Below, piece by piece: positions 8,615-26,637 of a DNA stretch of 42,288 nt. The number at the start of each line of letters is the position of its first letter. The first letter of the stretch is position 1. A model generated the notes under the pieces. It saw only the letters and a program-made list of their open reading frames with translations, was not told the origin of the DNA and did not search any database. Source of the stretch: Syntrophobacterales bacterium (GTDB lineage: Bacteria > Desulfobacterota > Syntrophia > Syntrophales > UBA6807); assembly GCA_021159265.1 (NCBI GenBank), contig JAGGSD010000108.1, positions 1 through 42,288 on the forward strand, written 5' to 3'. Made by a program: the position numbers and the translations under genes.

Positions 8615-10303
8615 ATGGAGGAGGAAGTGACTGGTAAAAATAACGCAAGCGAAGTCAACTGGGATGACTATCTCAAGGCATATTATGAGAAACCATCCAG
8701 TTTCAAGAGCTGGTCGGGGTATGATGTAAAGGAAATTTATACTCCGGAAGACAGTCCTGATGAGAAGTATGAAGAAAAAATTGCAGATGCCGGCGAATAC
8801 CCTTTCACCCGGGGAATTCACGCAAACATGTTCCGTGGCCGGTTATGGACTAAAAGGGAGGTTGTAGGCATAGGTTCGCCTGCGGACACACATGAGCGTC
8901 TGCAATATCTGGTTGAGCAGGGGGGCTCCGGGTTGAACACCATCGCTGATGTTACTTATGAGATGGGGCTTGATGCGGATCATCCCTGGGCAGTCAATGA
9001 AGTCGGCTTAACAGGTGTAAATATTACCTCCATTAAGGACATGGAGACGCTGACCAAAGACATACCCCTGGACAAAGTCAGCTGGTCTCTGATTACTGCT
9101 TCCACGGCCGCATCAGTAACCATGGCTCAATACATAGCTGTTGCGGAAGACGCAGGTTATCAACCGGCGGCATTGCGTGGTTCTGTGCAGAATGATCCAA
9201 TACACTTTCGTTACTGCGGTTTCAGGCCTGCATCTCCTTTGGATTTATCCATCAAGCTGGGTTCCGACGTCATGGAATACTGCACAAGGAACCTGCCCAA
9301 GTGGTATTACACGACTGTGAATATGTATGATCTGAGGGAACAGGGGATAACAGCGCCTCAGGAAGTGGCGTTCGGTTTTGGCATCGCCATGTGTTACATA
9401 GATGAACTGATTCGACGTGGATTGAATATTGATGAATTTGCCCCGCGGTTTACCTTTTATGTTTCCTGTCATATGGACATTTTTGAGGAAGTGGCCAAGA
9501 TCAGGGCTGCGCGAAGGATGTGGGCAAAATTGATGAAGGAGAAGTATGGGGCAAAAGACCCGCGTTCGATGCACTTCCGCTTCGCGGTTCATACGGCAGG
9601 GTGTTCGCTTATTCCACAACAGCCGTTGAATAATATTGTGCGGGTTGCGTATGAGGGTCTGACTGCCGTTTTGGCCGGTGTACAGTCTCTCCACTGCTGT
9701 TCATATGATGAGCCCATGTGTCTTCCTTCTGAAAAGGCACATCTCCAGGCCCTGCGAACGCAACAGATCCTTGCATACGAAACGGGGGTAACAAATGTGG
9801 CTGATCCCCTGGGAGGGTCGTACTATGTAGAGAGTCTCACCGACAAGATGGAAGAGGAAGTTTTGAAGGTTATGAAGCGGGTTGAAGATGTCGGGGGAAT
9901 GGAAGAGGCTATTCGCACAGAGTGGCTGGATCACGAACTTGAATCTGAAGCTGTCGAACGGCAAAAGGAACTGGACGATGGCTCGAAACTTGTGGTTGGA
10001 CTCAACATTTTCAAAGAGGAAGAGGAAAAGGAGACGCCTATGGGCGTCCAGCGAGTTTCGCCGCAGTCCGCAAAGCAGCAGATAGAAGAAGTCAAAGAGC
10101 TGAAGCGCACAAGGGATATGAGCAAAGTAAGAGATGCCATAAAGCGTATCAGGGACGAGGCGGGAGAAGGTAAAAATACTATTCCTCCAATGATGGAAGC
10201 TTCAAGAGCATTCGCGACAACCGGAGAAATGTTAGGCACCATTCGCCAGGTATTTGGATATTCATATGATCCTATGGAGATCATTGAATCACCATTCGAT
10301 TAA
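8615..10303 (+). CDS. B12-dependent acyl-CoA mutase large subunit, paralogue 1 (highly divergent active site)
   Basis: MCM-family strings GEYPFTRGI, FAPRFTF, AKIRAARRMWAK and DPLGGSYYVESLT. The substrate-pocket motifs are altered (see findings). The start could instead be GTG 8627, preceded by GGAGGAGG. Confidence 0.85.
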   Translation: MEEEVTGKNNASEVNWDDYLKAYYEKPSSFKSWSGYDVKEIYTPEDSPDEKYEEKIADAGEYPFTRGIHANMFRGRLWTKREVVGIGSPADTHERLQYLVEQGGSGLNTIADVTYEMGLDADHPWAVNEVGLTGVNITSIKDMETLTKDIPLDKVSWSLITASTAASVTMAQYIAVAEDAGYQPAALRGSVQNDPIHFRYCGFRPASPLDLSIKLGSDVMEYCTRNLPKWYYTTVNMYDLREQGITAPQEVAFGFGIAMCYIDELIRRGLNIDEFAPRFTFYVSCHMDIFEEVAKIRAARRMWAKLMKEKYGAKDPRSMHFRFAVHTAGCSLIPQQPLNNIVRVAYEGLTAVLAGVQSLHCCSYDEPMCLPSEKAHLQALRTQQILAYETGVTNVADPLGGSYYVESLTDKMEEEVLKVMKRVEDVGGMEEAIRTEWLDHELESEAVERQKELDDGSKLVVGLNIFKEEEEKETPMGVQRVSPQSAKQQIEEVKELKRTRDMSKVRDAIKRIRDEAGEGKNTIPPMMEASRAFATTGEMLGTIRQVFGYSYDPMEIIESPFD

Positions 10304-10325
10304 TCATGTGTGAGGAGTTTGAGAT

Positions 10326-10733
10326 ATGATCAAAGGAAAGAAGAAAAAGATTAAGGCGCTGGTAACCAAGGTTGGCCTGGACGGTCATGATAGAGGCGCA
10401 AAGGTGGTGGCTTCCATGCTTAAGGAGGCGGGGATGGAGGTGATATACCTGGGGATGTACCAAATGCCGGAAAATATTGTAAAAGCCGCCCTTGATGAAG
10501 ATGTGGATGTTATAGGTTTAAGCTATCTGTCAGGCGAACATCTCATTTTTACTCCCCTAATTGTTGAAGAGATGAAAAAAAACGGTTTGGATAACGTATT
10601 ACTGGTCGCCGGCGGCACTTTCCCCGCAGAAGATATTCCAATAATGGAAGAGATGGGGATTGATAAAGTATTCAGAGCCGGTTCCCTTACTGAGTCTTTT
10701 GTGGAATACATCAGAGATAATGTGAAAGAGTGA
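10326..10733 (+). CDS. Cobalamin-binding small subunit (partner of mutase 1)
   Basis: 135 aa with [15 protein letters not shown] (DxHxxG), GLSYLSGEH (SxL) and VAGGTFP (GG). GAGGAG precedes the ATG. Confidence 0.9.
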   Translation: MIKGKKKKIKALVTKVGLDGHDRGAKVVASMLKEAGMEVIYLGMYQMPENIVKAALDEDVDVIGLSYLSGEHLIFTPLIVEEMKKNGLDNVLLVAGGTFPAEDIPIMEEMGIDKVFRAGSLTESFVEYIRDNVKE

Positions 10734-10743
10734 TAGGGAAAAT

Positions 10744-11736
10744 ATGAAAAAGAGTAAGGATATCGATGAAATGATACAGCAATTGTTTGCCGGTAACCGC
10801 CGAGCCGCTTCTCGTCTCATTACCCGGGTGGAAAATGAGACAGAAGATCATCATGAGATAATGAAGAAAATTTATCCTCGTACCGGGCAGGCGACGATTG
10901 TGGGAATAACAGGTTCCGGCGGAGCTGGAAAAAGCACGCTGACAGACCACCTGATTCAGAAGTTCCGTGAGCAGGGGAAAACAGTCGGAGTTATTGTAGT
11001 AGATCCGAGTAGTCCTTTTTCGGGAGGCGCCTTGTTGGGCGACCGTATCCGTCTTCAACGTCACTTTCTGGATGATGGGGTTTACATAAGAAGTCTGGCG
11101 TCAAGAGGCTGCCTGGGAGGCCTGTCGAGCGCAACCTATAATGTCATTCGTATCCTGGAGGCCATGGGAATGGATATTATCATTGTGGAGACCCTTGGCG
11201 CGGGACAGGATGAGATTGATATTATTCATATCGCAAACACTTGTATTCTGGTGGCGACACCGGGGATGGGTGACGACATCCAGGCCATGAAAGCGGGGAT
11301 CATGGAAATCGCGGATATCATAGCTCTCAACAAATCGGATCTGGAAGGGGCAAACAGATCTCTACGACAGTTGCAAACCGCTTTATCGGTTGCCTCCCTT
11401 GAGGAGGGGCAGTGGGCGCCCCGGGTGATACCGACAGTATCTATAGGAAGCAGGCCTGAAGATCTCAAGGGCATCGACGAACTGGCGTCCGCAATAACAG
11501 AACATCAGGAATACCTGCATACAACGAGATCTATTGATAAGGTCAAATTTGAAAGAGTGGAAGAAGAGCTGGGCCTTGTCTTTAAAGATGAACTGCAGAG
11601 GTTGATTTTCAAGGGGCTGAGAGGGACGGGCAAGAAGAGGAAATATATTAACAGTATTATTGAAGGGAAAAATGATCCCTATTCTGTGGTCGAGGAAATT
11701 TTGAATACCTATTTAATCCGAAAAAAGAAGAAATGA
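10744..11736 (+). CDS. meaB: MeaB/ArgK-type G3E GTPase (mutase metallochaperone)
   Basis: P-loop GITGSGGAGKST, Walker B-like VETLGAGQDE and NKSD specificity motif. It sits between mutase subunit genes, as in icm/hcm/mcm operons. Confidence 0.9.
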   Translation: MKKSKDIDEMIQQLFAGNRRAASRLITRVENETEDHHEIMKKIYPRTGQATIVGITGSGGAGKSTLTDHLIQKFREQGKTVGVIVVDPSSPFSGGALLGDRIRLQRHFLDDGVYIRSLASRGCLGGLSSATYNVIRILEAMGMDIIIVETLGAGQDEIDIIHIANTCILVATPGMGDDIQAMKAGIMEIADIIALNKSDLEGANRSLRQLQTALSVASLEEGQWAPRVIPTVSIGSRPEDLKGIDELASAITEHQEYLHTTRSIDKVKFERVEEELGLVFKDELQRLIFKGLRGTGKKRKYINSIIEGKNDPYSVVEEILNTYLIRKKKK

Positions 11737-11742
11737 TACTCA

Positions 11743-13386
11743 ATGAATAATCCGGATTACATGGAAGCAAAAAAGTATGGGGAAGATATTTCTCTGGATG
11801 AGGAGCTTTATCGCAACCTCTCCGGGTTCCATATTAAATCCCTTTATGGTCCTGAAGATATTCCGAAGTTCGATTATGGAACCGACCTGGGTTTGCCGGG
11901 TGAATATCCATTCACACGTGGGATTTATAGAACCATGTACAGGGGAAAACCTTGGACTATCCGGCAATTGGGGTCTCTGGGTTCGCCTTCGGAGGCTAAC
12001 CGGCGAATCAGGCAGTTAATACAGATGGGTTCCACAGGAGTCAGCATCTGCCTGGATATGCCTACCATCATGGGAAGGGATTCTGATGATCCCATGTCTG
12101 AAGGGGAAGTGGGAAGCTGTGGCGGTGTGGCCATCGACTCTCTGGAAGATATGCGCAACCTCCTGGAGGGTCTTCCGCTTGATGAGATCAGCATCAATTT
12201 TGTCTCCAATTCTCAGTCTCCGGTCATTTTAGCCATGTTTGTCGCAGTTGCCGGGGAACAGGGTATTCCTCTCGCAAAACTCAACGGCACAATGCAGAAC
12301 GATATCCTCAAGGAATATCAGGCCCAGAAGTCTTATTATTTTCCACCACGTCCTTCCATGCGTCTTACCATCGATACGCTTCGTTTTTGTAGTGAGAATA
12401 TGCCGCTCTTTAACCCCATCAGCATTAGTGGGTATCATCTGGCCTCTGCGGGCGCAACTCCTGTTCAGGAATTGGCATTTACACTTGCCAATGGTTTTAC
12501 TTATATAGAGGAAGGGATTAAAGCGGGACTTTCTGTTGACAGCTTTGCCCCGCGGCTTTCTTTTTTCTTTAAGGCACATAATGATTTTTTTGAAAATATT
12601 GCCAAATTTCGTGCTGCCCGTCGAATCTGGTCCCGGACAATACGTGAGAAATATAAAGCCGAAGATCCGCGTTCGTGGCGATTCAGAGTTCATACACAGA
12701 CCTCAGGGTCTTCACTCGCGGCTCAGGAACCGGAAAATAATATTATGAGGGTGACTATCCAGGCGCTTTCGGCAGTCCTGGCGGGGACCCAGTCATTGCA
12801 TACCAATGCCTTTGACGAGGCATTTTCCATACCCACTCCGAGGTCTGAAAAACTGGCTTTGAGGGCTCAACAGATTATCGCCCGCGAGAGCGGGGTTATT
12901 AACACAGTGGATCCTCTTGGAGGTTCCTATTATATCGAGGCGCTGACTAACGAGATGGAGTCCGTGTCCTATGAGTATTTCAGAGAAATAGAAAATCTAG
13001 GTGGGGTCATTTCAGCCATAGAAAAGGGTTTCTATCAGAGCGCCATAGCCGATTCCGCCTTCAAATATCAGGAAGAGATTGAAAAGAAAAAGAGAATTGT
13101 GGTCGGTCTCAACGAGTTTGTTACAGATGAAGAGATGGATATCGAACTGAGAGAACCCGATCCGGAGTTTGAGAAACAGAAGGTGGCGGATCTCACAGCG
13201 CTTAAAAAAAATAGAGATTTAAATGTAGTCAAGACCTGCCTGAGTGAAGTCAGACAAGTCATTCAGGGATCGGATAATGTCATGCCGGTCCTGATAAAGG
13301 CTGTAAAATCCCGCGTTACTCTGGGTGAAATCATTAATGTCATGCGGGACATTTTCGGCGAATTCAGGGAAGAGTCCATATATTGA
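11743..13386 (+). CDS. B12-dependent acyl-CoA mutase large subunit, paralogue 2 (ICM/HCM/PCM-like, Gln at the Arg207 position)
   Basis: GEYPFTRGIYRTMYRGKPWTIRQ, GTMQNDILKEYQAQK, ISISGYH, FAPRLSFFF, SLHTNAFDEA and DPLGGSYYIEALT. Confidence 0.9.
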   Translation: MNNPDYMEAKKYGEDISLDEELYRNLSGFHIKSLYGPEDIPKFDYGTDLGLPGEYPFTRGIYRTMYRGKPWTIRQLGSLGSPSEANRRIRQLIQMGSTGVSICLDMPTIMGRDSDDPMSEGEVGSCGGVAIDSLEDMRNLLEGLPLDEISINFVSNSQSPVILAMFVAVAGEQGIPLAKLNGTMQNDILKEYQAQKSYYFPPRPSMRLTIDTLRFCSENMPLFNPISISGYHLASAGATPVQELAFTLANGFTYIEEGIKAGLSVDSFAPRLSFFFKAHNDFFENIAKFRAARRIWSRTIREKYKAEDPRSWRFRVHTQTSGSSLAAQEPENNIMRVTIQALSAVLAGTQSLHTNAFDEAFSIPTPRSEKLALRAQQIIARESGVINTVDPLGGSYYIEALTNEMESVSYEYFREIENLGGVISAIEKGFYQSAIADSAFKYQEEIEKKKRIVVGLNEFVTDEEMDIELREPDPEFEKQKVADLTALKKNRDLNVVKTCLSEVRQVIQGSDNVMPVLIKAVKSRVTLGEIINVMRDIFGEFREESIY

Positions 13387-13413: not shown

Positions 13414-13809
13414 ATGGCCGGTGAGAGAAAAAAAAGAATATTGATAGCGAAGCCAGGTCTCGACGGTCATGATCGTGGGGCGAAGGTGGTGGCAAGAGCT
13501 CTGCGTAATGCCGGTATGGAAGTCATCTATGCGGGCCTTCACCAGACACCGCTTCAGATAGTCAATACCGCAGTAGATGAGGATGTGGAGGCCATTGGGT
13601 TAAGCATTCTCTCGGGAGCGCACAAAACCATATTTCCCAAAGTTATGTCTCTTCTTAAGCAAAAGGGAATTTCAGATATATTGGTTTTCGGGGGCGGGAC
13701 AATTCCTAAAAAAGATTGGGGTATACTGAAGTCAATAGGTGTCGGAGAGATTTTCCCCCCCGGGTCGGACACACGAGAAATTGCAGCGTATCTGTATAAA
13801 GTTCTGTAG
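13414..13809 (+). CDS. Cobalamin-binding small subunit (partner of mutase 2), C-terminus truncated by repeat insertion
   Basis: [24 protein letters not shown] and FGGGTIP. ATG 13414 is preferred over the ORF-track TTG at 13396. The stop codon TAG lies inside the terminal inverted repeat of the 13806-13912 element. Confidence 0.88.
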
Positions 13810-15653: not shown

Positions 15654-16040
15654 ATGAAAAAAGCGATCAGGGTAGTGATAGCGCGTCTTGGCATGGATGC
15701 TCACTGGAGGGGAAGCGTTGTGGTAGCGCGCGCCATACGTGATGCGGGAATGGAAGTTATCTATCTGGGGAATCAGATGCCGGAAGCTATTGTTGAAACT
15801 GCCATACAGGAAGATGTTAATGTGATAGGTCTGAGCACACTGTCGGGAAACCATCTGGAATTAGCGCCGGAGGTGGTCAGATTGCTCAGAGAAAAGGGGA
15901 TAAGGGACATACTGGTGATTCTTGGAGGAACCATCCCACCTGATGATATCCCAAAGCTCAAAGCGGCAGGTATAGCGGAGGTCTTTGGTACGGGGTCATC
16001 TTTGGAAAAGATTGTCCGGTTTGTATCAGGATCAGATTGA
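15654..16040 (+). CDS. Cobalamin-binding small subunit (partner of mutase 3) with variant DAHWRG motif
   Basis: 128 aa with ARLGMDAHWRGSVVV (DxHxxG kept; Lys to Arg, Gly to Ala, Asp to Trp relative to the other three), GLSTLSGNH and LGGTIP. Confidence 0.85.
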   Translation: MKKAIRVVIARLGMDAHWRGSVVVARAIRDAGMEVIYLGNQMPEAIVETAIQEDVNVIGLSTLSGNHLELAPEVVRLLREKGIRDILVILGGTIPPDDIPKLKAAGIAEVFGTGSSLEKIVRFVSGSD

Positions 16041-16081
16041 ATAAATTTTACAAAGTAAACATTTTAGACGAGGAAGGAGGA

Positions 16082-17533
16082 ATGGATAAAGTGAAGGGAA
16101 TTACAGCTTACGGCATTTATTTGCCATATCACAGACTGAAACGCGAGACTATTTTTAAGGCTATGGGGTGGTTTAACCCTGGGGTTGGAGGCTTGGCTAA
16201 AGGTGAGAAAGCCGTAGCCAATTTTGATGAAGACAGTCTTACCATGGCTGTTGCCGCCGGTATGGATTGTTTCCCGGATATCGGCAGAGAAGAAATTGAT
16301 GCTCTGTATCTTGCCTCGACAACTTTTCCATACAAGGAAAGGGGAAATGCCTCAATTGCCGCCGGGGCATTGAATCTTTCTGCAAATACCCGAACCGCCG
16401 AGTTTTCCGGGTGTCTGAAATCGGGGACGACCGCGCTTATTTCGGCCCTCAACGCATCCGATTCAGAAACAACGATGGTCTGCGCATCCGACACTCGTCT
16501 TGGCAAGGCCGGCGGAACCGAGGAGCAGATGACGGGAGATGGAGCCGCTGCCGTTGCTGTGGGGAGTAAAGGAGTAATTGCTTCTCTTATTGACCATTAT
16601 TCTATCTCTTATGATTTTCCGGATCACAGGCGATTGGATTCAGATAAGTTTATCCGAAGCTGGGAAGAAAGATGGATGCGGGAAGCGGGTTATTTTAAAA
16701 TATTGCCGGAAGCTGTCAATGGTCTCCTTGCCAGGTGCGGGCTTCAAATCAGCGACATTACCAAAGTGGTTTATGCTCCCCCCAATCTCAGAGATCATAA
16801 AGCCATGGCTCAGAGTCTGGGCATAAAACCTGAGAGAGTTCAGTCTCCCCTAATCGAACCGGTGGGGAACACAGGGGCGGCGCATCCTCTGGTTATGCTG
16901 ATAGCGGCGCTGGAAGAAGCTCAGCCGGGCGATAAAATACTGGTGGCGAGTATGGGAAGCGGTAGCGACGCCTTGCTCTTTGAGGTTACGGAAGAGATAA
17001 CAAAACTGAAATCAAGGAACAAATTGAAGAAGAATCTGGATTACAAAGGTGAGCTTGACAATTATACAAAATACCTCTCATTCAAGGGTATGCTGGAAAA
17101 AGAGATAGGAATACGCGGTGAAGAAGTTTCACCCACCAGTCTATCCCTTCAATGGAGGGAACGGAACGCGGTTTTGAAACTGGTTGGCGCAAAATGCAAG
17201 GTTTGCGGGACCCCTCAGTTTCCCGCCGAAACTGTATGCATTAATCCCGAGTGCGGGGCGGTGGGTCAGATGGAGGAGTATTCCTTTTCAGACAAGACAG
17301 GTCACCTCTTTACCTTTACGGCCGATCACCTGGCTTTTACGGAAGACCCGCCGGGTCTGTATGGAATAGTAGATTTTGATGAGGGAGGCAGGTACTGGTT
17401 TGATATTACCGACTGTCGTCTGGAATCATTAAAGGTAGGTCAACCTGTGCAGATGACCTTTAGAAGAAGATATCTTGATGAGGCTCGTGGCATTGCCGGC
17501 TATTTCTGGAAAGCAATGCCCTTTAAGGGTTAA
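16082..17533 (+). CDS. HMG-CoA-synthase-like condensing-enzyme domain fused to a DUF35 Zn-ribbon/OB-fold domain
   Basis: N-terminal FDEDSLTMAV (Glu), EFSGCLKSGTTAL (Cys) and VGNTGAA (Asn). C-terminal CKVCG...CINPEC four-Cys ribbon plus OB-fold region. GGAAGGAGG precedes ATG 16082; the ORF-track TTG at 16037 is rejected. Confidence 0.8.
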   Translation: MDKVKGITAYGIYLPYHRLKRETIFKAMGWFNPGVGGLAKGEKAVANFDEDSLTMAVAAGMDCFPDIGREEIDALYLASTTFPYKERGNASIAAGALNLSANTRTAEFSGCLKSGTTALISALNASDSETTMVCASDTRLGKAGGTEEQMTGDGAAAVAVGSKGVIASLIDHYSISYDFPDHRRLDSDKFIRSWEERWMREAGYFKILPEAVNGLLARCGLQISDITKVVYAPPNLRDHKAMAQSLGIKPERVQSPLIEPVGNTGAAHPLVMLIAALEEAQPGDKILVASMGSGSDALLFEVTEEITKLKSRNKLKKNLDYKGELDNYTKYLSFKGMLEKEIGIRGEEVSPTSLSLQWRERNAVLKLVGAKCKVCGTPQFPAETVCINPECGAVGQMEEYSFSDKTGHLFTFTADHLAFTEDPPGLYGIVDFDEGGRYWFDITDCRLESLKVGQPVQMTFRRRYLDEARGIAGYFWKAMPFKG

Positions 17534-18926: not shown

Positions 18927-20264
18927 ATGGCAACAAGGAAATTAGCAGAGTTTGTTTACAAGACTTCGTTTGAAGATATACCTCAGGAGGTCAGGGAGCA
19001 CTCCAAACTTGTGTTTCTTGACTGGCTGGGCGCCGCGTTGGCTGGATCAGGAGAAGGAATAGCTTCCGTTATGCTGAGATTTATTGATGATATTGATGGC
19101 AAGAACGGGCCTGACCAGGCCACGATTATTGGCAAGAACGTCAAGACAGATATGCTCAAAGCGGCCCTCATCAATGGTTCAATGTCCCACGCCCTCGATA
19201 TCGACGATTACCATGGCCCGACTCTGTGTCATCCGACAGTAACCTTTTTACCCGGTATCCTGGCGCTGTCTCAGCAAAACCACTTGGAAGGAAAAGATAT
19301 CATCACTGCCATGACAGTGGCCTTTGATATATTAGTCAGGGTAGGATACGGGGCGAAGAGGATTCACTATGACCGGGGTTGGCATGCCACTTCAACCCTG
19401 GGAAAGTTCGGAGCCACGGCAGGCGCCGGCAAATTGTTAAAACTGGATGTTGATGGATTAATAAATGCTTTTGGAATTGCCGGAACGGTGGCGGGAGGAG
19501 TCCGCCAGGTATTCGGTACCATGGGCAAACCCTTCCATGCAGGGAAGGCTTCTATGGACGGGCTTCTGGCAGCGCTTCTGGCTCAGTCAGGTTTTCAATG
19601 TTCAAAGGAGATCATTGAAGGTGAAAACGGGTTTATGACGCTCTTTTCCGATGATCCGGATTTAGACACAATGCTTGATCAGTTGGGAGAGTATTATTAT
19701 TTGCCTACTGTGAGCTTTAAACCTTATGCCTCATGTGGCGGCACACACTCGACCATAGATATGATGAAGGAACTTCGAGAGAAAAATAATATCAATGTGG
19801 ATGATGTGAAAGAAATAAGAATAGACGCAGGCAAAATAGCGTTAGATGCAGCCGGCAAGGTTGCGCCAAAGACCGGCCTTGAGGGAAAATTCAGTACTTA
19901 TTATTGCGCGGCAGTGGCGTTGGCGGAGGGTGCAGCGAGCCCCGATAAATTTACCGATGAAAAAGTAAATGATCCCAGGCTGGTAGCGCTGAGGCAGAAA
20001 GTGAAAATAAGTGTTCCTGAACCGGACCTCGGTTTTGCTTTACGTGCAGTGATACAGATGAAGGATGGAACTGAATATTCGGCCTCCACCGATGCCCCCA
20101 GGGGGGACCCCGCAAATCCAATTTCTTATGATGAACTTGCGGAAAAATTCAGAGGTTTGACAAAAAACGTAATATCCGAGGCTAATGTTGAACAGTTGAT
20201 AGATAAAATAAAAACACTCGATCGAGTATCAGACATTGAAACGTTGCTGGATCTTTGTTCATAG
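18927..20264 (+). CDS. MmgE/PrpD-family protein (2-methylcitrate dehydratase superfamily)
   Basis: 445 aa. The N-terminus LAEFVYKTSFEDIPQEVREHSKLVFLDWLGAALAGS is typical of the family. GAGGAGG precedes the ATG. Confidence 0.85.
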   Translation: MATRKLAEFVYKTSFEDIPQEVREHSKLVFLDWLGAALAGSGEGIASVMLRFIDDIDGKNGPDQATIIGKNVKTDMLKAALINGSMSHALDIDDYHGPTLCHPTVTFLPGILALSQQNHLEGKDIITAMTVAFDILVRVGYGAKRIHYDRGWHATSTLGKFGATAGAGKLLKLDVDGLINAFGIAGTVAGGVRQVFGTMGKPFHAGKASMDGLLAALLAQSGFQCSKEIIEGENGFMTLFSDDPDLDTMLDQLGEYYYLPTVSFKPYASCGGTHSTIDMMKELREKNNINVDDVKEIRIDAGKIALDAAGKVAPKTGLEGKFSTYYCAAVALAEGAASPDKFTDEKVNDPRLVALRQKVKISVPEPDLGFALRAVIQMKDGTEYSASTDAPRGDPANPISYDELAEKFRGLTKNVISEANVEQLIDKIKTLDRVSDIETLLDLCS

Positions 20265-20301: not shown

Positions 20302-21966
20302 ATGACTAAAGAGACCGAAATTGCAAAAGAAAAGAAAAGATGGGAGGCGGAAACACTTTCCGGCCAGTCGTATAAAAAAAATGTGAAGGCCATGCTTACG
20401 GGTGTCGATCTCGATGTCGACGTTCTTTATACGCCTGCAGACATTAAAGATACGGACTATTTAGAAGATATTGGTTTCCCCGGCGAATTTCCCTTTACAC
20501 GAGGTGTCTACCCCTCAATGTACCGTGGAAGGCTGTGGACGATGAGACAGTATTCGGGATTTGATACTCCGGAAGAATCCAATGCAAGGTATAAGTACCT
20601 GTTGGCGCAGGGGAATACAGGACTCAGTGTGGCCTTTGATCTTCCGAGCCAGATGGGATACGACTCCGACAATGAAGACATTGAGGAAGAAGTGGGAAAG
20701 GTAGGCGTGGCCATCAGCACATTAAAAGATATGGAAATCCTTTTCGACGGCATCAATCTGGGTGAAATTACGACTTCGTTTACCATTAATGGAATCGCCT
20801 CCATTATTCTTGCCATGTATGTTGCCGTTGCGGATGAACGGGGCATTCCTCGAGAGAAGATAGGCGGGACCATTCAAAACGATATACTGAAGGAGTATGC
20901 CGCGAGGGGCACTTACCTGTATCCCCCAAAGCCGTCGCTGCGGCTGGTTGCGGACGCCATTGAATATTGTATGAATGATGTTCCGAAATTCAATCCTATC
21001 AGTATATCGGGCGGACATTATCGAAGTGGGGGCGCGAGTATGGTTCAGGAAGCTTCGTTTACCATGCTGAACGGGATGACCTATATTGAGTCTATAATTG
21101 CCAGGGGTATTGACGTGGATAAATTTGCGCCCCGGTTGAGTTACCTTCTGGTGAATCACTGTAACATTTTCGAGGAAGTTGCCAGATATCGCGCTGTCAG
21201 GAGGATCTGGGCGCATGTTATGAGAGACAGGTTCAATGCGAAAGACCCGAGATCCATGATGTTCCGGGTTTACTCCGCCGGATGCGGGGATGTCTTAACA
21301 TACGCGGAACCGGAAAATAATATTGTCCGGTTAACCCTGATGACCCTGGCCGGTATCCTGGGAGGGAGCCAGGCCTATTTTACACCCGGCTATGATGAAG
21401 CCTATGCCCTGCCGACTGAGGAGACAGCGCTGTTAGGTCTTCGCACACAGCAGATCATTGCCTATGAATCGGGAGTGCCCAATACCGTGGATCCTCTTGG
21501 AGGTTCCTATTATATAGAGTGGCTTACCGACAAAATCGAAGATGAGATCCTGAAGTATATGAAACATCTGGAAGAGAGAGGGAATATGGTCGAGCTCGTT
21601 GAGCAGGGTTATATCCAGAGTGAAATGGCCAGGATTGCATTTGAGAAGACCAAGAAAAAGATGTCCGGCGAGGAAGTGGTGGTGGGAGTCAATAAATTTC
21701 AGGCCTCGGAGAAGAAAGAACAGATTCAGCTTCACCAGACAGATCCAGAGGTAATTAAAAAACGTATAGAGAGTGTGAAGCAGGTGAAAAAAGAGCGTGA
21801 TAACGACAAGGTTGCTCATTGTTTGAAGGATCTGAAAAAAGCGGCAGAGGGGACTGAGAACATGATGCCTTATATACTGGAAACAGTGAAGGCCTATGGA
21901 TCGGTGGAGGAGATTGTTACGACCCTGAAGGAAGTATTCGGAGAATTTAAAGAGCCGCTGATATAG
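20302..21966 (+). CDS. B12-dependent acyl-CoA mutase large subunit, paralogue 4 (keeps the MCM Tyr/Arg carboxylate clamp)
   Basis: GEFPFTRGVYPSMYRGRLWTMRQYSGF, GLSVAFDLPS, GTIQNDILKEYAARGTYLYPP, FAPRLSY and DPLGGSYYIEWLT. Confidence 0.9.
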   Translation: MTKETEIAKEKKRWEAETLSGQSYKKNVKAMLTGVDLDVDVLYTPADIKDTDYLEDIGFPGEFPFTRGVYPSMYRGRLWTMRQYSGFDTPEESNARYKYLLAQGNTGLSVAFDLPSQMGYDSDNEDIEEEVGKVGVAISTLKDMEILFDGINLGEITTSFTINGIASIILAMYVAVADERGIPREKIGGTIQNDILKEYAARGTYLYPPKPSLRLVADAIEYCMNDVPKFNPISISGGHYRSGGASMVQEASFTMLNGMTYIESIIARGIDVDKFAPRLSYLLVNHCNIFEEVARYRAVRRIWAHVMRDRFNAKDPRSMMFRVYSAGCGDVLTYAEPENNIVRLTLMTLAGILGGSQAYFTPGYDEAYALPTEETALLGLRTQQIIAYESGVPNTVDPLGGSYYIEWLTDKIEDEILKYMKHLEERGNMVELVEQGYIQSEMARIAFEKTKKKMSGEEVVVGVNKFQASEKKEQIQLHQTDPEVIKKRIESVKQVKKERDNDKVAHCLKDLKKAAEGTENMMPYILETVKAYGSVEEIVTTLKEVFGEFKEPLI

Positions 21967-22008
21967 ATTAACCGCAGGATGTACCTGGCGTGGGGGGGGA
22001 TAATTATC

Positions 22009-22515
22009 ATGAAAAACTTATCTGTTCTGGTTTCCGGAATTGATAAAGTGGGCGAATTTTTTCTCAGGGCATGTGCCTTTTTATTGTTATTGATGCTTGT
22101 AACTGTTCTTTATGATGTTTTGATGAGATATTTCTTTTCGAGGCCGACTTCCTGGGCGCTGGAGATAAATGAATATTTCTTTATCTTTCTTTCAATAATG
22201 CCGGCAGCCGAAATATTACGTCAGAAGAAACATATAGGTCTGGATATATTTTTAAAAAAATTGTCCGGAAGACGTCAGCTCTACGTTGAGATATTTTATT
22301 CGATTTGTATGCTCTTCTTTTCTTCAATCGTGGTCTGGCGGGGATTTGAAATGACTGCTAATGCCTACAAATTTGGTATGGCCTCCAGTTCTCTGCTGTC
22401 GTTTCCCCTCTTTATCCCATATTCTCTAATCCCCGCTGGTTTTGGGTGGTTAAGCTTGCAGTTGGTTGTTAAGATCGGCAGTAATATTAATATGTTAGCG
22501 GGGAGGTACGAATGA
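22009..22515 (+). CDS. TRAP transporter small permease (DctQ-type)
   Basis: About 168 aa, four hydrophobic segments, with a 4-bp ATGA overlap with the following DctM gene. The start could also be 21979. Confidence 0.8.
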   Translation: MKNLSVLVSGIDKVGEFFLRACAFLLLLMLVTVLYDVLMRYFFSRPTSWALEINEYFFIFLSIMPAAEILRQKKHIGLDIFLKKLSGRRQLYVEIFYSICMLFFSSIVVWRGFEMTANAYKFGMASSSLLSFPLFIPYSLIPAGFGWLSLQLVVKIGSNINMLAGRYE

Positions 22516-23816
22516 GCGTAACATTTGCCGCCATTTTAGTATTCATCATATTATTGCTGCTTATTTTTATGGGTTGCCCGGTTTTTGCTTCTCTCGGCAT
22601 TTCCGCAACCATCGGTATTCTACTGCTGCGAGGATGGGTGGGGGTGAGTCAGATTCCCTCCACGATGTATGGACAGTTATCAAGCTTTGTCCTGATAGCC
22701 GTTCCAATGTACCTGTTAATGGGCGATGTTCTTTTTAAGACAGGTATCGGTGCTGATCTTTATGATGTGTTCAGTAAATGGTTTAACCGTATTCCCGGTG
22801 GATTGGCAATGGCCAGTGTCTTTGCATGCGCAGTGTTTGGGGCCATGTGCGGCATCAGTATTGCCGGTGTCGCAACGATTGGAGTAATAGCAATTCCCGA
22901 AATGTTAAAAAGGGGGTATAGCCCGCCTCTTGCAGCCGGGTCTGTGACGGCAGCCGGGGCTCTGGCCATGCTGATTCCGCCAAGCCTGCTTTTTATTCTG
23001 TACGGCGCTATAGCCGAAGTGTCTCTTGATAAACTTTTTGTGGGCGGTATTGTTCCCGGTCTGATTCTGGCATTAATGATGTGTATTTATATCGCGATTC
23101 GCGTATTGATTAATCCCCAATCAGCGCCCATGCCGGATGAAGTTATTACATGGAGCGACAGGATTCGACCGTTAAAGAGACTCTGGCCTGCGATTCTGCT
23201 TATTGTATGGGTCCTGGGTTCCATATATGGTGGAATTGCCACTCCTACAGAAGCCGGAGCTTTCGGCGCCGCAGGGGCCTATCTCATTGCCATATTTGTT
23301 TATCGTACTTTCAGCCTGAAGATGCTTGCCGAAACGTTGTTGACCACTGCCCGTACTACCGGTGCAGTGTGCCTTATTGTAGCTTGCGCCATGGTATTTT
23401 CCCAATTCATGAATCTGGCCAGGGTTCCTGAAAACCTGGCGCAATTTCTGGTTTCACTGTCTATGCCTGATTGGGTGCTTATGTTTATTGTTATGGTGTT
23501 TCTTCTTATTCTGGGCATGCTCATTGACGGCGCATCAATGGTTCTGGTTACCACTCCCATCCTGCTGCCGGTTGTGGTAGCCGCCGGGTATGACCCCCTG
23601 TGGTATGGAATAATACTGGTTCTGAATTTGGAAATGGCGGTCATAACGCCTCCGGTGGGTTTAAATCTATATACCTTAAAGAGTGTTACGGATGCGGTGT
23701 CAATGGCCGAAATACTCCGCGGGACGATGCCTTATGTCGCCGTGGAATTTGCCTGTTTGATGTTTTTTGTGTTTTTCCCGGAATTGGCGCTATGGCTGCC
23801 GTCAACTATGAAATAA
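22512..23816 (+). CDS. TRAP transporter large permease (DctM-type)
   Basis: 434-aa polytopic membrane protein. Paralogous along its length to 28641-29933 (for example PTEAGAFGAAGA vs PTEAGAVGMILS; ITPPVGLNLYTLK vs ETPPVGLNLYVLK). Confidence 0.9.
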   Translation: MSVTFAAILVFIILLLLIFMGCPVFASLGISATIGILLLRGWVGVSQIPSTMYGQLSSFVLIAVPMYLLMGDVLFKTGIGADLYDVFSKWFNRIPGGLAMASVFACAVFGAMCGISIAGVATIGVIAIPEMLKRGYSPPLAAGSVTAAGALAMLIPPSLLFILYGAIAEVSLDKLFVGGIVPGLILALMMCIYIAIRVLINPQSAPMPDEVITWSDRIRPLKRLWPAILLIVWVLGSIYGGIATPTEAGAFGAAGAYLIAIFVYRTFSLKMLAETLLTTARTTGAVCLIVACAMVFSQFMNLARVPENLAQFLVSLSMPDWVLMFIVMVFLLILGMLIDGASMVLVTTPILLPVVVAAGYDPLWYGIILVLNLEMAVITPPVGLNLYTLKSVTDAVSMAEILRGTMPYVAVEFACLMFFVFFPELALWLPSTMK

Positions 23817-23954
23817 GCGACGGGAAAAAGAGGGCGTTATGAGTGTGGCGGATCACGATCGTTCGGGCCATTCTCGTAGCAGTTAATAGTAAACTTCATA
23901 ACTTAACATTCCGGTGATTTGTTGTAACGCCGGATTATAAAAAAGGGGGTTATC

Positions 23955-25004
23955 ATGTTAAGGGTAATTTTTACAAGGAGTAAACTGGCGGCGGTGAAAG
24001 TCTTTGTGATGTTTTCCATTGTGATGTTTTTACTTACGACGGGCTTTGTGGCGGTTTCCAGTGCCGGAGAGAGCAACAAAGAGTTAAAACTGGTTATGGC
24101 GACATATCTCCTGCCGGCATATAAGGGGATATTCCCTGCGCTTCCAAGATTTGTTGATTATGTGAATGAGCATGGAAAGGGGATAGTGCAGATTGATTTC
24201 TATCATTCAGGGACTCTTCTAAAAGCGAAGGAATTGTTATCAGGCGTCCAGTCAGGCACAGCGGATATTATTTTTCAGACAGATGCCTATATAAGTGGGA
24301 CTTATCCGATGTTGGGCGCCATCCAGCTTCCTCTGCTTTATAACAGTGAAGAGGAGAGATATCAGAAAAATAAGCTTGGCACTCCGGTTTCCCATTTTTT
24401 GCGTGAAAAGATGAAAGAGAAAGGGATGGCTTTGCTGGCTATCGGTCAAGTTCCTACGGAATATATCTGGACAGTCAAAAAACCGGTGAGAAAACCATCG
24501 GACCTGAAGGGATTGCGTATGAGAGTTTCAGGGAAGATCGACTCTAAAACCGTGGCTACATTTGGCGCTTCTCCCGTCAGAATGCCTTCAGCCGAGGCGT
24601 TCATGGCTCTCAAACGGGGGGTTGTTGATGGCATAATGGCTTATTCCGGCACTATAGCAGGTCGGAGATTAGATGAAGTTCTAAAATATTGTACAATTGG
24701 CGCTTTTGGCAATATGCACGTGCTTATATTGACCCCTCAGGAGCGCTGGGAAAGCTGGCCGGAAAACGCGCGCAAGATCATTATGGAGGCGGCGAAACGA
24801 TATGAAGCCGATATGTATAAGACATGCACGAAATATATCGAAACTTTGTTCGAGACAAGGTTCAAAAATATAAAAGTAATCAGGCTTGATGACAGAGAAA
24901 GGTCCGCTTTTAAAAAAGACCTTACCCAAACCTACAGCTGGTGGGCGAATATGGTGGGAAAAAGTGAAGGCGAAAGGGCGCTGAAGATTGTCCGGGGCAA
25001 ATGA
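23955..25004 (+). CDS. TRAP solute-binding protein (DctP-type), copy 1
   Basis: Signal-peptide-like N-terminus. DctP-family strings HGKGIVQIDFYHSGTLL and LKGLRMRVSG (carboxylate-binding Arg region). GGGGG precedes the ATG. Confidence 0.88.
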   Translation: MLRVIFTRSKLAAVKVFVMFSIVMFLLTTGFVAVSSAGESNKELKLVMATYLLPAYKGIFPALPRFVDYVNEHGKGIVQIDFYHSGTLLKAKELLSGVQSGTADIIFQTDAYISGTYPMLGAIQLPLLYNSEEERYQKNKLGTPVSHFLREKMKEKGMALLAIGQVPTEYIWTVKKPVRKPSDLKGLRMRVSGKIDSKTVATFGASPVRMPSAEAFMALKRGVVDGIMAYSGTIAGRRLDEVLKYCTIGAFGNMHVLILTPQERWESWPENARKIIMEAAKRYEADMYKTCTKYIETLFETRFKNIKVIRLDDRERSAFKKDLTQTYSWWANMVGKSEGERALKIVRGK

Positions 25005-25112
25005 TTTCATCCCATGGGAGGGGTATTTCAGCGACAAAAGTAACAATTTTTCCTGAACGGTATACCCGCTGCTTGCGGCGGGGTATCGCATTGAAATTAC
25101 GGAGGTATAAAA

Positions 25113-26141
25113 ATGAGAGATTCAAAGTTGAAGAGATTTTGTCTGCTGTTTTTAGTCGGAGCAATCTGTTTTATCCTGGTGGGACAGACTGGCATTTCTT
25201 ATGCGGGAACCCACAAAGAACTGAAACTGGTTATGTCAACGTATATCCCCGCGAGCTACAAGGATATTCACCCATGGCAGCAAGGGTTTGTTGACTATGT
25301 GAATAAACATGGCAAGGGTATAGTGCAGATAGATTTTTATCACTCAAGCACTTTGCTGAAATTGAGAGAAGCGATCCCGGGACTGCAGGCAGGCACGGCG
25401 GATATCATTCTTCATCAAGACTCCGCCATTCAGGGAACCTATCCTATATTTGGCGTTACCGAGCTTCCATTCATATATGATAATTATGATGATTATGTAA
25501 TGGATTGCAGAATCGGGTCACCCCTGTTTAATTTGATCAATAAAGAACTCAAAAAAAAGAACATGTTTATGATTGCTGCCGCCGCGAATCCGTTTGAGCA
25601 TATCTGGACATTGAAACCCGTCAGGAAACCGGAAGACATGAAAGGTTTGAAACTAAGGTGTTCCGGCAGAATTGAGTCACTGACGTTAAAGGCTCTTGGA
25701 ACAGCGCCTGTCAGTATGCCGTCGGCCGAGGTTTTTATGGCAATGAAAAGAGGAACGGTGGATGGTCTGATGTCTTACCCTGGAACCGTGGGAGGGCGCA
25801 GGCTTGATGATGTTGTTAAATATTGCACCCTGGGTAATTTTGGCGCGTATATGACCCCGATATTTACGACTCGTGATCGGTGGGATAGCTGGCCTCAGGA
25901 TGTAAAAGATGTCATGATCGAAGCGGGAAGGGAATATAATTTCAGAAATGCATTGAATGGCAGAATTTATCTTCTGGAGACTTATTTCCCGAGATTTAAC
26001 CGAAAAATAGAAATGATAAAGCTCACGAAGGAAGAGATTGCAGCATTTAAAAAAGCGACAAAACCTGTCTATGACACCTGGTTAAAACAGGTTGACAAGA
26101 AAGTCGGGGAAAAGGCGCTGGCTATTGTTCAAAATAGATAG
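25113..26141 (+). CDS. TRAP solute-binding protein (DctP-type), copy 2 (tandem paralogue of copy 1)
   Basis: Shares long strings with copy 1 (KELKLVM, HGKGIVQIDFYHS, GTADII, MPSAE, VDG, VKYCT). GGAGG precedes the ATG. Confidence 0.88.
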   Translation: MRDSKLKRFCLLFLVGAICFILVGQTGISYAGTHKELKLVMSTYIPASYKDIHPWQQGFVDYVNKHGKGIVQIDFYHSSTLLKLREAIPGLQAGTADIILHQDSAIQGTYPIFGVTELPFIYDNYDDYVMDCRIGSPLFNLINKELKKKNMFMIAAAANPFEHIWTLKPVRKPEDMKGLKLRCSGRIESLTLKALGTAPVSMPSAEVFMAMKRGTVDGLMSYPGTVGGRRLDDVVKYCTLGNFGAYMTPIFTTRDRWDSWPQDVKDVMIEAGREYNFRNALNGRIYLLETYFPRFNRKIEMIKLTKEEIAAFKKATKPVYDTWLKQVDKKVGEKALAIVQNR

Positions 26142-26232
26142 AAAATAAATAGGTAACATAAAATTTTGCGGAGCTTAACTTTTGGGCTATGGATGAAGAA
26201 TGAGGATTGAATTATTTTAAGGGAGTTACAGT

Positions 26233-26637
26233 ATGGTTAAACATAGCATAAGGATATTGTTGGCCAAACCCGGACTTGACGGTCATGATCGGGGCGCTAA
26301 ATTTCTGGCAAGGGCATTACGAGATGCGGGGATGGAAGTGATTTACACGGGGCTGCATCAGAAAATACCCCAGATTGTAGTGTCGGCGTTGCAGGAAGAT
26401 GTTGATGTGGTTGGGCTGAGCATCCTGTCCGGGAGTCATCTGGGTCTCACAAAGAAATTTTTTGCTGAGAGTGAAAAAAGGGGTCTGGACGGAGAACTGG
26501 TGCTGGTTGGGGGCACCATCCCTGAGGAGGATTTCTCGAAGCTGAGAGAAATGGGCGTAGATGGGGTGTTTGGCGTTGAATCGGATATTGATGATATAGT
26601 TAACTTTATCCGGGAGCATGTTCCATCAGAAAAGTAA
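26233..26637 (+). CDS. Cobalamin-binding small subunit (orphan position; presumed partner of mutase 4)
   Basis: [24 protein letters not shown] and VGGTIP. It is the only unpaired B12-binding gene, and mutase 4 is the only unpaired large subunit. Confidence 0.85.
   Translation: MVKHSIRILLAKPGLDGHDRGAKFLARALRDAGMEVIYTGLHQKIPQIVVSALQEDVDVVGLSILSGSHLGLTKKFFAESEKRGLDGELVLVGGTIPEEDFSKLREMGVDGVFGVESDIDDIVNFIREHVPSEK

Follow-up and report, generated by a model that had tools for sequence, protein, structure and literature searches.

Does an array of four B12-dependent acyl-CoA mutases with a single chaperone gene encode copies of one activity or enzymes for different substrates, and were its genes inherited together? 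The question is raised by positions 8615-26637 of a 42,288-nucleotide stretch of DNA, analysed here at full length and referred to as the window. This 42-kb contig belongs to a metagenome-assembled genome of an uncultured, sulfate-reducer-type member of the Syntrophobacterales (Desulfobacterota).

Gene content and recurrence of the array

The region, an operon-like array, holds four split mutases, each with a large (L1-L4) and a DxHxxG-bearing small subunit (S1-S4), and one MeaB G-protein chaperone, all nine open reading frames lying on the forward strand (Table 1). Each large subunit matches nearly the full Pfam MM_CoA_mutase model (E 1e-166 to 1e-203) and scores above the TIGR00641 cut-off, and none reaches the NCBIfam cut-off for the methylmalonyl-CoA mutase (MCM) equivalog, the name that all four bear in public annotation. 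The small subunits all match B12-binding/TIGR00640 and feature DxHxxG, SxLxG and GG motifs, and MeaB retains intact P-loop, ETLG and NKSD (NKxD) motifs. Reading frames, family matches and motifs thus confirm the preliminary description of four mutases, four B12 subunits and a single MeaB in one direction; likewise, profile searches and inspection of the leftover reading frames found in the window no second G3E GTPase, no adenosyltransferase and no methylmalonyl-CoA epimerase, as had been proposed. Public copies of L1 are annotated from position 8627, and a 131-residue gene call on an identical contig supports the previously chosen start of S2, which is most likely right. As independent assemblies and other species show the same gene order, the array is not an assembly artefact.

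Table 1. Features of the window (positions in nucleotides) and the matches that identify them.
Feature	Position	Strand	Evidence
Upstream beta-oxidation set: 621-aa ACAD, HADH/ECH fusion, thiolase; 409-aa ACAD	59..7073	+; 409-aa ACAD -	Pfam, NCBIfam
TetR-family regulator, transcribed divergently from L1	7405..8151	-	Pfam TetR_N + TetR_C_24
L1, divergent acyl-CoA mutase	8615..10303 (alternative start 8627)	+	Pfam E 1.2e-166
S1, B12-binding	10326..10733	+	Pfam, TIGR00640; DGHDRG at residue 19
MeaB G-protein chaperone	10744..11736	+	TIGR00750 323 bits vs cut-off 241
L2, ICM-like	11743..13386	+	Pfam E 1.8e-203
S2	13414..13809 (mechanical ORF starts 13396)	+	Family matches
L3	13937..15619	+	Pfam E 2.2e-181
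S3	15654..16040	+	Family matches; DAHWRG motif
Pseudo-HMG-CoA-synthase (PhlA-like)::DUF35 Zn-ribbon/OB fold	16037..17533 (probable start 16091)	+	Pfam ACP_syn_III_C + zf-ChsH2 + OB_ChsH2_C
SCP-x-type thiolase	17683..18885	+	NF004810 619 bits vs cut-off 403
MmgE/PrpD-family protein, IRG1/IDS-epimerase branch	18927..20264	+	Pfam
L4, putative carboxylate-binding mutase, enlarged pocket	20302..21966	+	Pfam E 6e-190
TRAP transporter DctQ, DctM, two DctP (between L4 and S4)	21979..26141	+	Pfam
S4, presumed L4 partner	26233..26637	+	Family matches, motifs
Third DctP, second DctQ/DctM pair	26880..29933	+	Pfam
AMP-forming acyl-CoA ligase	30080..31642	+	Pfam, NCBIfam
SDR (3-oxoacyl reductase-like), MaoC-type hydratase pair	31749..33433	+	Pfam, NCBIfam
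Liu-like trio: MCC-beta-type carboxyltransferase, enoyl-CoA hydratase, HMG-CoA-lyase-like protein	33858..37756	+	PDB, Pfam

Modular inheritance and catabolic surroundings

The closest cultured counterpart is a locus of Desulfosarcina BuS5 (CP087952.1, about 3.717-3.739 Mb), in which MeaB, L3-S3, the pseudo-HMG-CoA-synthase::DUF35 gene, the thiolase, the PrpD-like gene and L4-S4 follow one another in the same order as here, with identities of 66-90% (L3 and S3, 77% each; thiolase, 90.5%; L4, 71% to P0136; S4, 70% to both small subunits downstream of the L4 orthologue). Unlike the array, the BuS5 locus lacks L1, L2 and TRAP genes and features a family-III CoA-transferase/racemase gene upstream; its S4 directly follows L4, whereas here the two are parted by the 4.3-kb TRAP cassette. 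BuS5 is a cultured propane and butane degrader, and Desulfothermus naphthae a cultured alkane degrader. The TetR-L1-S1-MeaB unit stands alone in many loci. Of the ~30 related loci whose length allowed mapping, most have TetR pointing away from the L1 orthologue, and L1 is conserved at 72-85% versus 53-77% for the neighbouring MeaB. L2-S2-L3-S3 is added in loci L015, L022, L029, L042, L048 and L073. The array is therefore best read as three separately inherited modules, namely TetR with L1-S1-MeaB (A), L2-S2 (B), and the stretch from L3-S3 to L4...S4 (C), the last including a dead HMG-CoA-synthase-like::DUF35 scaffold with its SCP-x thiolase and the PrpD/IRG1-like gene. Overall, we consider it fairly probable that this composite brings together four AdoCbl-dependent mutases for different substrates around a shared MeaB.

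The scaffold of module C had been listed as HMG-CoA synthase-like. The protein scores below the NCBIfam cut-off for that enzyme, its best PDB match is PhlA (5m3k), and no orthologue retains the catalytic Cys or His; lacking both residues and fused to DUF35, the domain cannot be an HMG-CoA synthase, and the adjacent thiolase is its probable catalytic partner. The PrpD-like protein has 7bra, 2hp3 and cis-aconitate decarboxylases as its best PDB matches, and its gene accompanies L4-type mutases both in BuS5 and at locus L075. Such mutases repeatedly adjoin genes for PrpD-like proteins, TRAP transporters and the same CoA ligase, the ligase of the window being 68% and 53% identical to its mutase-adjacent counterparts in L075 and D. 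naphthae, respectively. An alkylsuccinate synthase gene was found neither in the window nor within 10 kb of the BuS5 locus.

The catabolic setting previously outlined is present, with two TRAP systems and three binding proteins, a ligase, ACADs, HADH/ECH, thiolases and the MCC-type trio. It had been taken to reflect a single dedicated toolkit for monocarboxylates with methyl branches or quaternary carbons, in which L2 (or L1/L3) would serve as pivalyl- or isovaleryl-type mutases feeding the Liu-type module. We give this reading a modest chance. Downstream of the array, the carboxyltransferase scores 381 bits against MCC beta, 270 bits against GCC and about 165 bits against classical PCC among PDB sequences, and, together with the hydratase and a protein matching HMG-CoA lyase (1ydo, E 6e-23), resembles the proteomically verified, isovalerate-induced cluster of Desulfococcus multivorans (PMC5109826). 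Furthermore, the carboxylate clamp (Tyr89/Arg207) is missing from L1-L3, which suggests that these enzymes accept acyl groups that are uncharged or carry other substituents. Against joint design, however, the comparison of loci indicates modules inherited apart, with the Liu-like genes unlinked to mutases elsewhere; the window contains no biotin carboxylase subunit gene; and L4, PrpD, the TRAP systems and the ligase suggest dicarboxylate substrates. As the closest cultured counterpart is found in a gaseous-alkane degrader, alkyl-substituted dicarboxylates are indicated at least as strongly as quaternary-carbon acids.

Clades and active-site residues of the large subunits

Residues were read from a MAFFT alignment to PDB sequences (P. 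shermanii MCM numbering), with MCM, ethylmalonyl-CoA mutase (ECM), 2-hydroxyisobutyryl-CoA mutase (HCM) and IcmF as characterised enzymes. The four paralogues share 36-43% pairwise identity and fall into four separate clades, each with 100% bootstrap support and none containing a characterised enzyme, so that the phylogeny called for earlier places them apart. At positions 89/116/207 they read V/I/G (L1), L/C/Q (L2), L/I/(T or A) (L3) and Y/A/R (L4), in agreement with the earlier reading by eye save for the third position of L3, which is ambiguous because of a one-residue insertion. The reference signatures given earlier, I/D/Q for HCM and Y/A/R for MCM, proved correct, and the claim that the L1-L3 combinations match no characterised mutase holds among these four enzymes; taken as a whole, the sequences of L1-L4 conform to none of these types. 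Glu370, Gln197, Arg82/87 and Arg283 are kept in all four paralogues.

L1 and L3 are, by their sequences, sister clades with Asp or Asn at position 244, and their substrates are probably new for the family. The L1 pocket (V89 I116 A117 W163 G207 D244 A328 H330 C366) carries Asp in place of the catalytic His244 in all ~47 orthologues aligned, and its V/I/G signature with D244, A328, H330 and C366 is invariant among them across several orders; L3 reads L89 I116 (T/A)207 N244 D366. Since His244, the general acid, is found in every aligned characterised enzyme, whereas H244D and H244N are invariant in their clades, its loss could mean that mutase activity is lost, and many more such "Tyr-Asp" variants occur among uncharacterised representatives. 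L1 and/or L3, in which many further pocket residues differ, might then catalyse another AdoCbl radical reaction (migration of another group, elimination) or be non-catalytic partners resembling MutA, the inactive beta subunit of P. shermanii MCM. We find this doubtful, slightly more so than the toolkit: both are paired with a small subunit of their own in which DxHxxG is intact, while MutA-type subunits have no B12 partner; both retain Glu370, Gln197 and the CoA-channel arginines; and L1 orthologues remain 72-97% identical across ~50 MAG species from several orders, their next relatives reaching only ~44-51%, a very strong purifying selection that argues for an active enzyme.

L2 (L89 C116 L117 Q207 Y243 H244 H328 Q330 N366) shares 49-53% identity with F/A/Q-signature proteins of archaea and Ignavibacteriales, and is about equally close to Bacillaceae proteins with the MCM-type Y/A/R. 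From these residues we infer that its substrates are short, branched, uncharged acyl-CoAs exceeding isobutyryl-CoA in size, which it would isomerise; it might simply be a pivalyl-CoA mutase (PCM).

L4 (Y89 A116 R207 G243 H244 L287 Y328 A330 A362 F364 P366) had implicitly been equated with canonical MCM. We reject this assignment because Tyr243, His328, Gln330 and Asn366, invariant in MCM all the way from bacteria to humans, the archaeon Thermococcus included, are all replaced, by ECM-like pocket changes (Gly243, Tyr328, Ala330, Pro366), and L4 belongs to a small clade that takes in the BuS5 orthologue, the wider clade (99% support) including a D. naphthae protein 55% identical to it. Analogy with ECM suggests pocket roles for residues 243, 328, 330 and 366, which in part we presume from MCM structures. 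That L1-L4 are redundant MCM isoenzymes serving propionate/succinate metabolism, as the public annotation and the Tyr89 and Arg207 of L4 would have it, is very improbable given the missing clamp in L1-L3, the four replacements in L4, the failure of every paralogue to reach the equivalog cut-off and the lack of an epimerase gene in the window.

In the composite array that we favour, every pair would adopt an HCM-like split, with the acyl-CoA held in the TIM barrel of the large subunit and B12 bound in the Rossmann small subunit through the His of DxHxxG, and the single MeaB would load and repair the cofactor for all four. The four mutases would share one mechanism, a radical 1,2-shift of the CoA-thioester carbon, and differ in substrate. 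For L4, with the clamp and His244 kept and a pocket opened as in ECM, the TRAP systems would import the substrates, which the PrpD-like protein might isomerise and the linked ligase would activate; L2, with apolar residue 89, Gln207 and His244, would act on the uncharged branched acyl-CoAs. The products would pass to the thiolase complex, beta-oxidation and the MCC-type module.

Comparison with known systems

The array shares three building blocks with PhlACB and archaeal thiolase/HMGCS/DUF35 complexes (PDB 5M3K, 6ESQ), namely an HMGCS-fold protein, an SCP-x-type thiolase and a DUF35 Zn-ribbon/OB protein; unlike in those complexes, its HMGCS-fold domain is fused to DUF35 and has lost the catalytic Cys and His. 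With IcmF (that of Priestia megaterium in the alignment; C. metallidurans 4XC6 in the PDB), L2 shares the Gln207/His244/His328/Gln330/Asn366 pattern, an apolar residue 89 and an associated G-protein chaperone, but it is split rather than fused, features Leu89, Cys116 and Leu117 in place of Phe, Ala and Phe, and shares only 32% identity with the mutase domain of IcmF. Among PDB entries, L4 matches HcmAB of Aquincola tertiaricarbonis (HCM; PDB 4R3U) best (533 bits). That enzyme is split into large and small subunits like the four pairs here, and has His244, Gln197 and Glu370 in common with L2 and L4; its Ile/Asp/Gln signature, however, occurs in none of the four paralogues, and it lies outside all four clades. 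Finally, ECM (MeaA/Ecm; Ruegeria meaA) and L4 both retain Tyr89, Arg207 and His244, and both replace Ser362 by Ala and Asn366 by Pro and lose His328 (Gly in ECM), L4 having lost Gln330 as well. L4 is nonetheless split where ECM is a single fused chain, is 35% identical to it and outside its clade, and also has Gly243, Ala330 and Phe364. The carbon-skeleton rearrangement of alkylsuccinyl-CoA has been assigned to an MCM-like mutase (PMC9576796). By analogy with ECM, L4 most likely interconverts 2-alkyl-substituted succinyl-CoA and alkylmalonyl-CoA, and would thus be a likely enzyme for the rearrangement that (1-methylalkyl)succinyl-CoA has long been postulated to undergo when alkanes are degraded anaerobically, the reaction postulated for L4 being that of ECM with a larger alkyl group.

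The mutase array and its modules

The 42,288-bp contig, with a G+C content of about 45%, has identical copies in public assemblies, where its MAG goes by the label Syntrophobacterales bacterium, and from 8615 to 37756 all of its genes lie on the plus strand with mostly short gaps between them. Tested against the AdoCbl-dependent acyl-CoA mutase superfamily (PF01642 and PF02310), all four large subunits, L1-L4, carry the substrate-binding TIM-barrel domain at full length (about 510 of the 512 positions of the PF01642 model), with Pfam E-values of 1e-166 to 1e-203, and all exceed the TIGR00641 cut-off; public gene calls for L1 begin four residues later than the 562-aa version. Family scans confirmed the preliminary description of four mutases, four B12-binding small subunits (S1-S4) and a single MeaB chaperone and, together with inspection of leftover ORFs, found no other GTPase, adenosyltransferase or methylmalonyl-CoA epimerase in the window, the latter two having already been reported as absent. 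An Rfam scan of the window gave no match to a cobalamin riboswitch, terminator predictions across it were no better than those from shuffles, and no operator-like inverted repeat was found in the TetR-L1 intergenic region.

Features of the array and its flanks, with identity to the counterparts in Desulfosarcina sp. BuS5
Feature	Position	Strand	Description and evidence	Identity to BuS5
HADH/ECH fusion	2009-4456		815 aa	
L1	8615	+	acyl-CoA mutase large subunit; Pfam	
S1	10326	+	B12-binding small subunit; DxHxxG, SxLxG, GG	
MeaB	10744	+	TIGR00750, 323 bits (cut-off 241); P-loop, NKxD	66%
L2	11743	+	acyl-CoA mutase large subunit; Pfam	
S2	13414	+	B12-binding small subunit; DxHxxG, SxLxG, GG	
L3	13937	+	acyl-CoA mutase large subunit; Pfam	77%
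S3	15654	+	B12-binding small subunit; DxHxxG, SxLxG, GG	77%
HMGCS-like::DUF35	16037-17533	+	putative scaffold	73%
Thiolase		+	SCP-x-type	90.5%
PrpD-like		+		66%
L4	20302	+	acyl-CoA mutase large subunit; Pfam	71%
TRAP cassette	21979-26141	+	DctQ, DctM, two DctP	
S4	26233	+	B12-binding small subunit; DxHxxG, SxLxG, GG	70%
CoA ligase	30080	+		
Carboxyltransferase trio	33858-37756	+	MCC-beta-type carboxyltransferase, enoyl-CoA hydratase, HMG-CoA-lyase-like protein	
Carbon-nitrogen hydrolase	38024-38848	+		
Glycyl-tRNA synthetase beta and alpha	38891-42165	-		

The array is organized as three modules around one chaperone. The near-universal unit in related loci of other genomes comprises a divergent TetR gene, L1, S1 and MeaB, after which L2-S2-L3-S3 are added in loci L015, L022, L029, L042, L048 and L073 and in a JGI contig. 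The third module comprises L3-S3, an HMG-CoA-synthase-like domain fused to DUF35 (HMGCS-like::DUF35), an SCP-x-type thiolase, a PrpD-like gene and L4-S4, in the same order in Desulfosarcina sp. BuS5 (CP087952.1, 3,717,160-3,738,821), a cultured propane and butane degrader, where a family-III CoA-transferase/racemase gene and MeaB precede it. In the window a TRAP cassette separates L4 from its presumed partner S4, and this cassette looks inserted into the mutase operon, because the BuS5 small subunit directly adjoins the large one. Where L2 and L3 are missing, the genes beside L1 are only generic ones (acyl-CoA dehydrogenases, thiolases, DUF35, ADP-forming CoA ligase and regulators). Further variants occur in other loci: a contig with an L1 orthologue (L016) also carries an unusual large subunit (L016_L2_42) with L89/I116/L207/Q243/D366, and a plasmid of Paraburkholderia caribensis (L069, 5902-7569) encodes a Y/A/R large subunit with Ala243, Gly328, Val330 and Cys366 that adjoins ECH, MeaB and TRAP genes. 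A further multi-mutase cluster (L075, JGI 3300025833 contig, 2493-17435) features a fifth large-subunit type, 35-40% identical to L1-L4 and with its own small subunit, as well as TRAP QM genes, GntR, MeaB, an L4-like pair, a PrpD-like gene, a CoA ligase, two ECHs, a nitronate-monooxygenase-like gene and a family-III CoA-transferase.

The HMGCS-like::DUF35 protein matches archaeal HMGCS below the cut-off and scores below both HMGCS cut-offs; its best solved relatives are PhlA, the closest, and the archaeal HMGCS that forms a complex with thiolase and DUF35. In place of the FAC-K catalytic Cys the window protein has Leu, and orthologues, that of BuS5 among them, have L, I or T; the FHQPN catalytic His is replaced by Ala in the window and by A or P in orthologues. 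Both residues are missing in every orthologue, the BuS5 copy lying at 5693-7135 of locus L070. A working HMG-CoA synthase feeding the downstream lyase is thus ruled out, since a protein with its catalytic Cys and His replaced is unable to supply HMG-CoA. The domain fusion is probably a dead scaffold for the neighbouring thiolase, and the latter, adjacent and extremely conserved, is the likely catalyst, in an arrangement analogous to BbsAB, an example of the DUF35-dependent thiolases.

Substrate pockets and phylogeny of the four paralogues

We aligned the large subunits with MCM (methylmalonyl-CoA mutase) of P. shermanii, man and M. tuberculosis, HCM (2-hydroxyisobutyryl-CoA mutase, PDB 4R3U), ECM (ethylmalonyl-CoA mutase, Ruegeria meaA) and IcmF (the fused isobutyryl-CoA mutase, Priestia megaterium), with reference sequences taken from the PDB and annotated plasmids and positions in P. 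shermanii numbering.

Pocket residues of reference enzymes and of L1-L4 (P. shermanii numbering)
Enzyme	89	116	207	243	244	328	330	366	Other
MCM	Y	A	R	Y	H	H	Q	N	
IcmF	F	A	Q	Y	H	H	Q	N	
HCM	I	D	Q	Y	H	H	Q	N	
ECM	Y	A	R	Y	H	G	Q	P	
L1	V	I	G	Y	D	A	H	C	A117, W163, F203
L2	L	C	Q	Y	H	H	Q	N	
L3	L	I	T or A	Y	N	H	Q	D	
L4	Y	A	R	G	H	Y	A	P	

Contacts to CoA and the adenosyl ribose (Arg82, Arg87, Gln197, Arg283 and Glu370) are retained throughout L1-L4, and these include the catalytic/adenosyl residues Gln197 and Glu370. His244, the general acid of the accepted mutase mechanism, is kept in L2 and L4 and lost to Asp in L1 and to Asn in L3. The Tyr89/Arg207 carboxylate clamp of MCM is found only in L4 and is missing from the other three. 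The three-position residue calls made by eye were essentially right; a reading of L4 as an ordinary MCM from its Y/A/R combination fails, as the MCM-invariant Tyr243/His328/Gln330/Asn366 are replaced by Gly/Tyr/Ala/Pro. All four proteins score below the cut-off of 876 of the MCM equivalog NF006944, which models the fused form, and far under that of the IcmF equivalog. The ICM signature Phe89/Gln207 is partial in L2 (Leu89/Gln207), with neither residue in L1 or L3, and no paralogue has, at 116/117, the Asp of the HCM signature Ile90/Asp117/Gln208.

In a neighbour-joining tree (numpy distances, 200 bootstraps), each of L1-L4 forms a clade with its own orthologues at 100% support, and none of the four clades includes any of the characterised MCM, ECM, HCM or IcmF sequences. 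L1 and L3 pair at 87.5% support. The paralogues share just 36-43% identity with one another, which argues for old duplications. Judged from the alignment and tree, L1-L4 are four different enzymes, none of the MCM, HCM, ECM or IcmF type.

The L1 signature is invariant in about 47 orthologues from MAGs of Desulfobacterales, Desulfomonilaceae, Desulfarculaceae and Syntrophaceae, with His330, Cys366 and Trp163 invariant beside Asp244, and L1 is more conserved than the neighbouring genes. A search of 1.84 billion representatives returned 1,786 proteins at E <= 1e-30; the one closest to L1, from Rokubacteria, is only 51% identical to it and shares its V/I/Y-D/H/C pattern. Within the 141 nearest 50%-identity representatives, the MCM signature occurs in 9, that of ICM in about 7 and that of HCM in 1 (about 17 known in all), and many of the others show Tyr-Asp at 243-244. 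By these sequence relationships, L1 belongs to a large uncharacterised radiation with members only from MAGs. It is conceivable, though we consider it rather unlikely, that L1/S1, as the conserved core, represents a new reaction class in the B12 mutase fold, in which the substrate or the migrating group would be new, and the best-populated case of the Tyr-Asp type.

Downstream of L3 there are often genes for a creatinase/M24-type peptidase, an LIV-type ABC transporter and CoA ligases; Creatinase_N/Peptidase_M24 genes follow L3-S3 orthologues in L072 (12204-13343), L073 (12217-13407) and a JGI contig. This pairing resembles that in the acetone-induced cluster of Desulfotomaculum arcticum, where a Xaa-Pro aminopeptidase gene lies beside a B12 mutase (PMC8084838), and is only a lead. 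Identification of L3 with the acetone-pathway HCM of sulfate reducers was rejected, the common M24 peptidase neighbour being its sole support.

L2 is like ICM in keeping Gln207 and His244. The outgroups nearest to it (49-53% identity) include F/A/Q proteins of archaea and Ignavibacteriales, which carry the ICM signature, as well as MCM-type (Y/A/R) proteins of Bacillaceae. Leu89, Cys116 and Leu117 are predicted to enlarge the pocket, and we infer that its substrates may be larger uncharged branched acyl-CoAs. Split genes named 'methylmalonyl-CoA mutase' in L055, L056, L057, L059 and L061, from mostly archaeal hosts (Ignavibacteriales, Nitrososphaeria, Conexivisphaerales and Thermoplasmata MAGs), carry the Phe89/Ala116/Gln207 signature of ICM, not that of MCM.

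L4/S4 as a candidate alkylsuccinyl-CoA mutase

At 70% identity or more the L4 clade is small, comprising BuS5 and a Guaymas Basin MAG, and it joins proteins of Desulfothermus naphthae, likewise an alkane degrader, and of other Deltaproteobacteria at 99% support. All members of this wider clade keep Tyr89, Arg207 and His244, with small or apolar residues at positions 243, 287, 328, 330, 364 and 366. ECM, whose substrate is methylmalonyl-CoA plus one carbon, alters the same region (Gly328, Ala362 and Pro366). L4 shares Tyr89, Arg207, Ala362 and Pro366 with ECM at 35% identity and lies outside the MeaA branch; it is predicted to work like ECM, yet is no member of the ECM group. By our own derivation, conversion of (1-methylalkyl)succinyl-CoA to (2-methylalkyl)malonyl-CoA would formally correspond to what ECM catalyses, only with a larger alkyl group, and an MCM-like enzyme has been assigned to the carbon-skeleton rearrangement of alkylsuccinyl-CoA (PMC9576796).

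L4-type mutases elsewhere repeatedly lie beside a PrpD-like gene, TRAP genes and a CoA ligase, the ligases being 68% and 53% identical to the one at 30080 in the window. Among solved structures, the PrpD-like protein comes closest to IRG1-like proteins, iminodisuccinate epimerase and cis-aconitate decarboxylase. In the mechanism we propose, the TRAP systems would import dicarboxylates, which the PrpD-like protein would perhaps epimerise or isomerise and which would then be activated to substrates of L4/S4. Because the carboxylate clamp is kept, the pocket is ECM-like and the PrpD, TRAP and ligase neighbours recur, we infer that L4/S4 may be an alkyl-substituted succinyl-/malonyl-CoA mutase. 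Alkylsuccinate synthase was not found in the window, nor within 10 kb of the BuS5 locus.

Catabolic setting and relation to known mutases

Upstream of the array lie two acyl-CoA dehydrogenases, a HADH/ECH fusion and a thiolase, and downstream of it a third DctP, a second TRAP permease, a CoA ligase, an SDR and a MaoC hydratase pair. The fusion has its 3-hydroxyacyl-CoA dehydrogenase N-terminal and its enoyl-CoA hydratase C-terminal, the reverse of the FadB order. The carboxyltransferase further downstream scores highest against methylcrotonyl-CoA carboxylase beta (381 bits), ahead of geranyl-CoA carboxylase (270 bits) and classical PCC (about 165 bits); the HMG-CoA-lyase-like protein of the trio, of 389 aa, is a weak match to solved HMG-CoA lyases and exceeds them in length by about 90 aa. 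Family scans found no biotin carboxylase/BCCP (MCC alpha) subunit, which a leucine/isovalerate (Liu) module would also have, anywhere in the window, and the trio of MCC-beta, hydratase and lyase-like genes resembles, without the biotin carboxylase, the isovalerate-induced cluster of Desulfococcus multivorans (PMC5109826). The carbon-nitrogen hydrolase and glycyl-tRNA synthetase genes mark the right-hand edge of the catabolic island. Overall, the surrounding genes make a catabolic role of the array well supported; this does not extend to individual substrates such as the methyl-branched or quaternary-carbon carboxylates first proposed.

B12-dependent acyl-CoA mutases are prized for building and breaking branched carbon skeletons, and we know of only five or six substrate specificities described for them. 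The locus adds four candidate specificities that could be cloned together on a single fragment, B12 subunits and chaperone included, and most of the enzyme family is functionally unexplored, given that so few of the nearest representatives of L1 carry a known signature. As the L1 and L3 clades replace His244, the accepted mechanism is called into question, and their wide spread among marine sediment sulfate reducers suggests that sediment carbon turnover involves a class of substrates so far unrecognised. It is more than 20 years since the alkylsuccinyl-CoA rearrangement was postulated for anaerobic alkane degradation, and to our knowledge no purified enzyme has been shown to carry it out; the L4 clade supplies a defined sequence signature for a candidate, and BuS5 a cultured host. 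The finding is richer than first described, comprising four uncharacterised specificity variants of a known family, and it is not categorically new, because the family, its fold, its cofactor handling and its general chemistry are already known.
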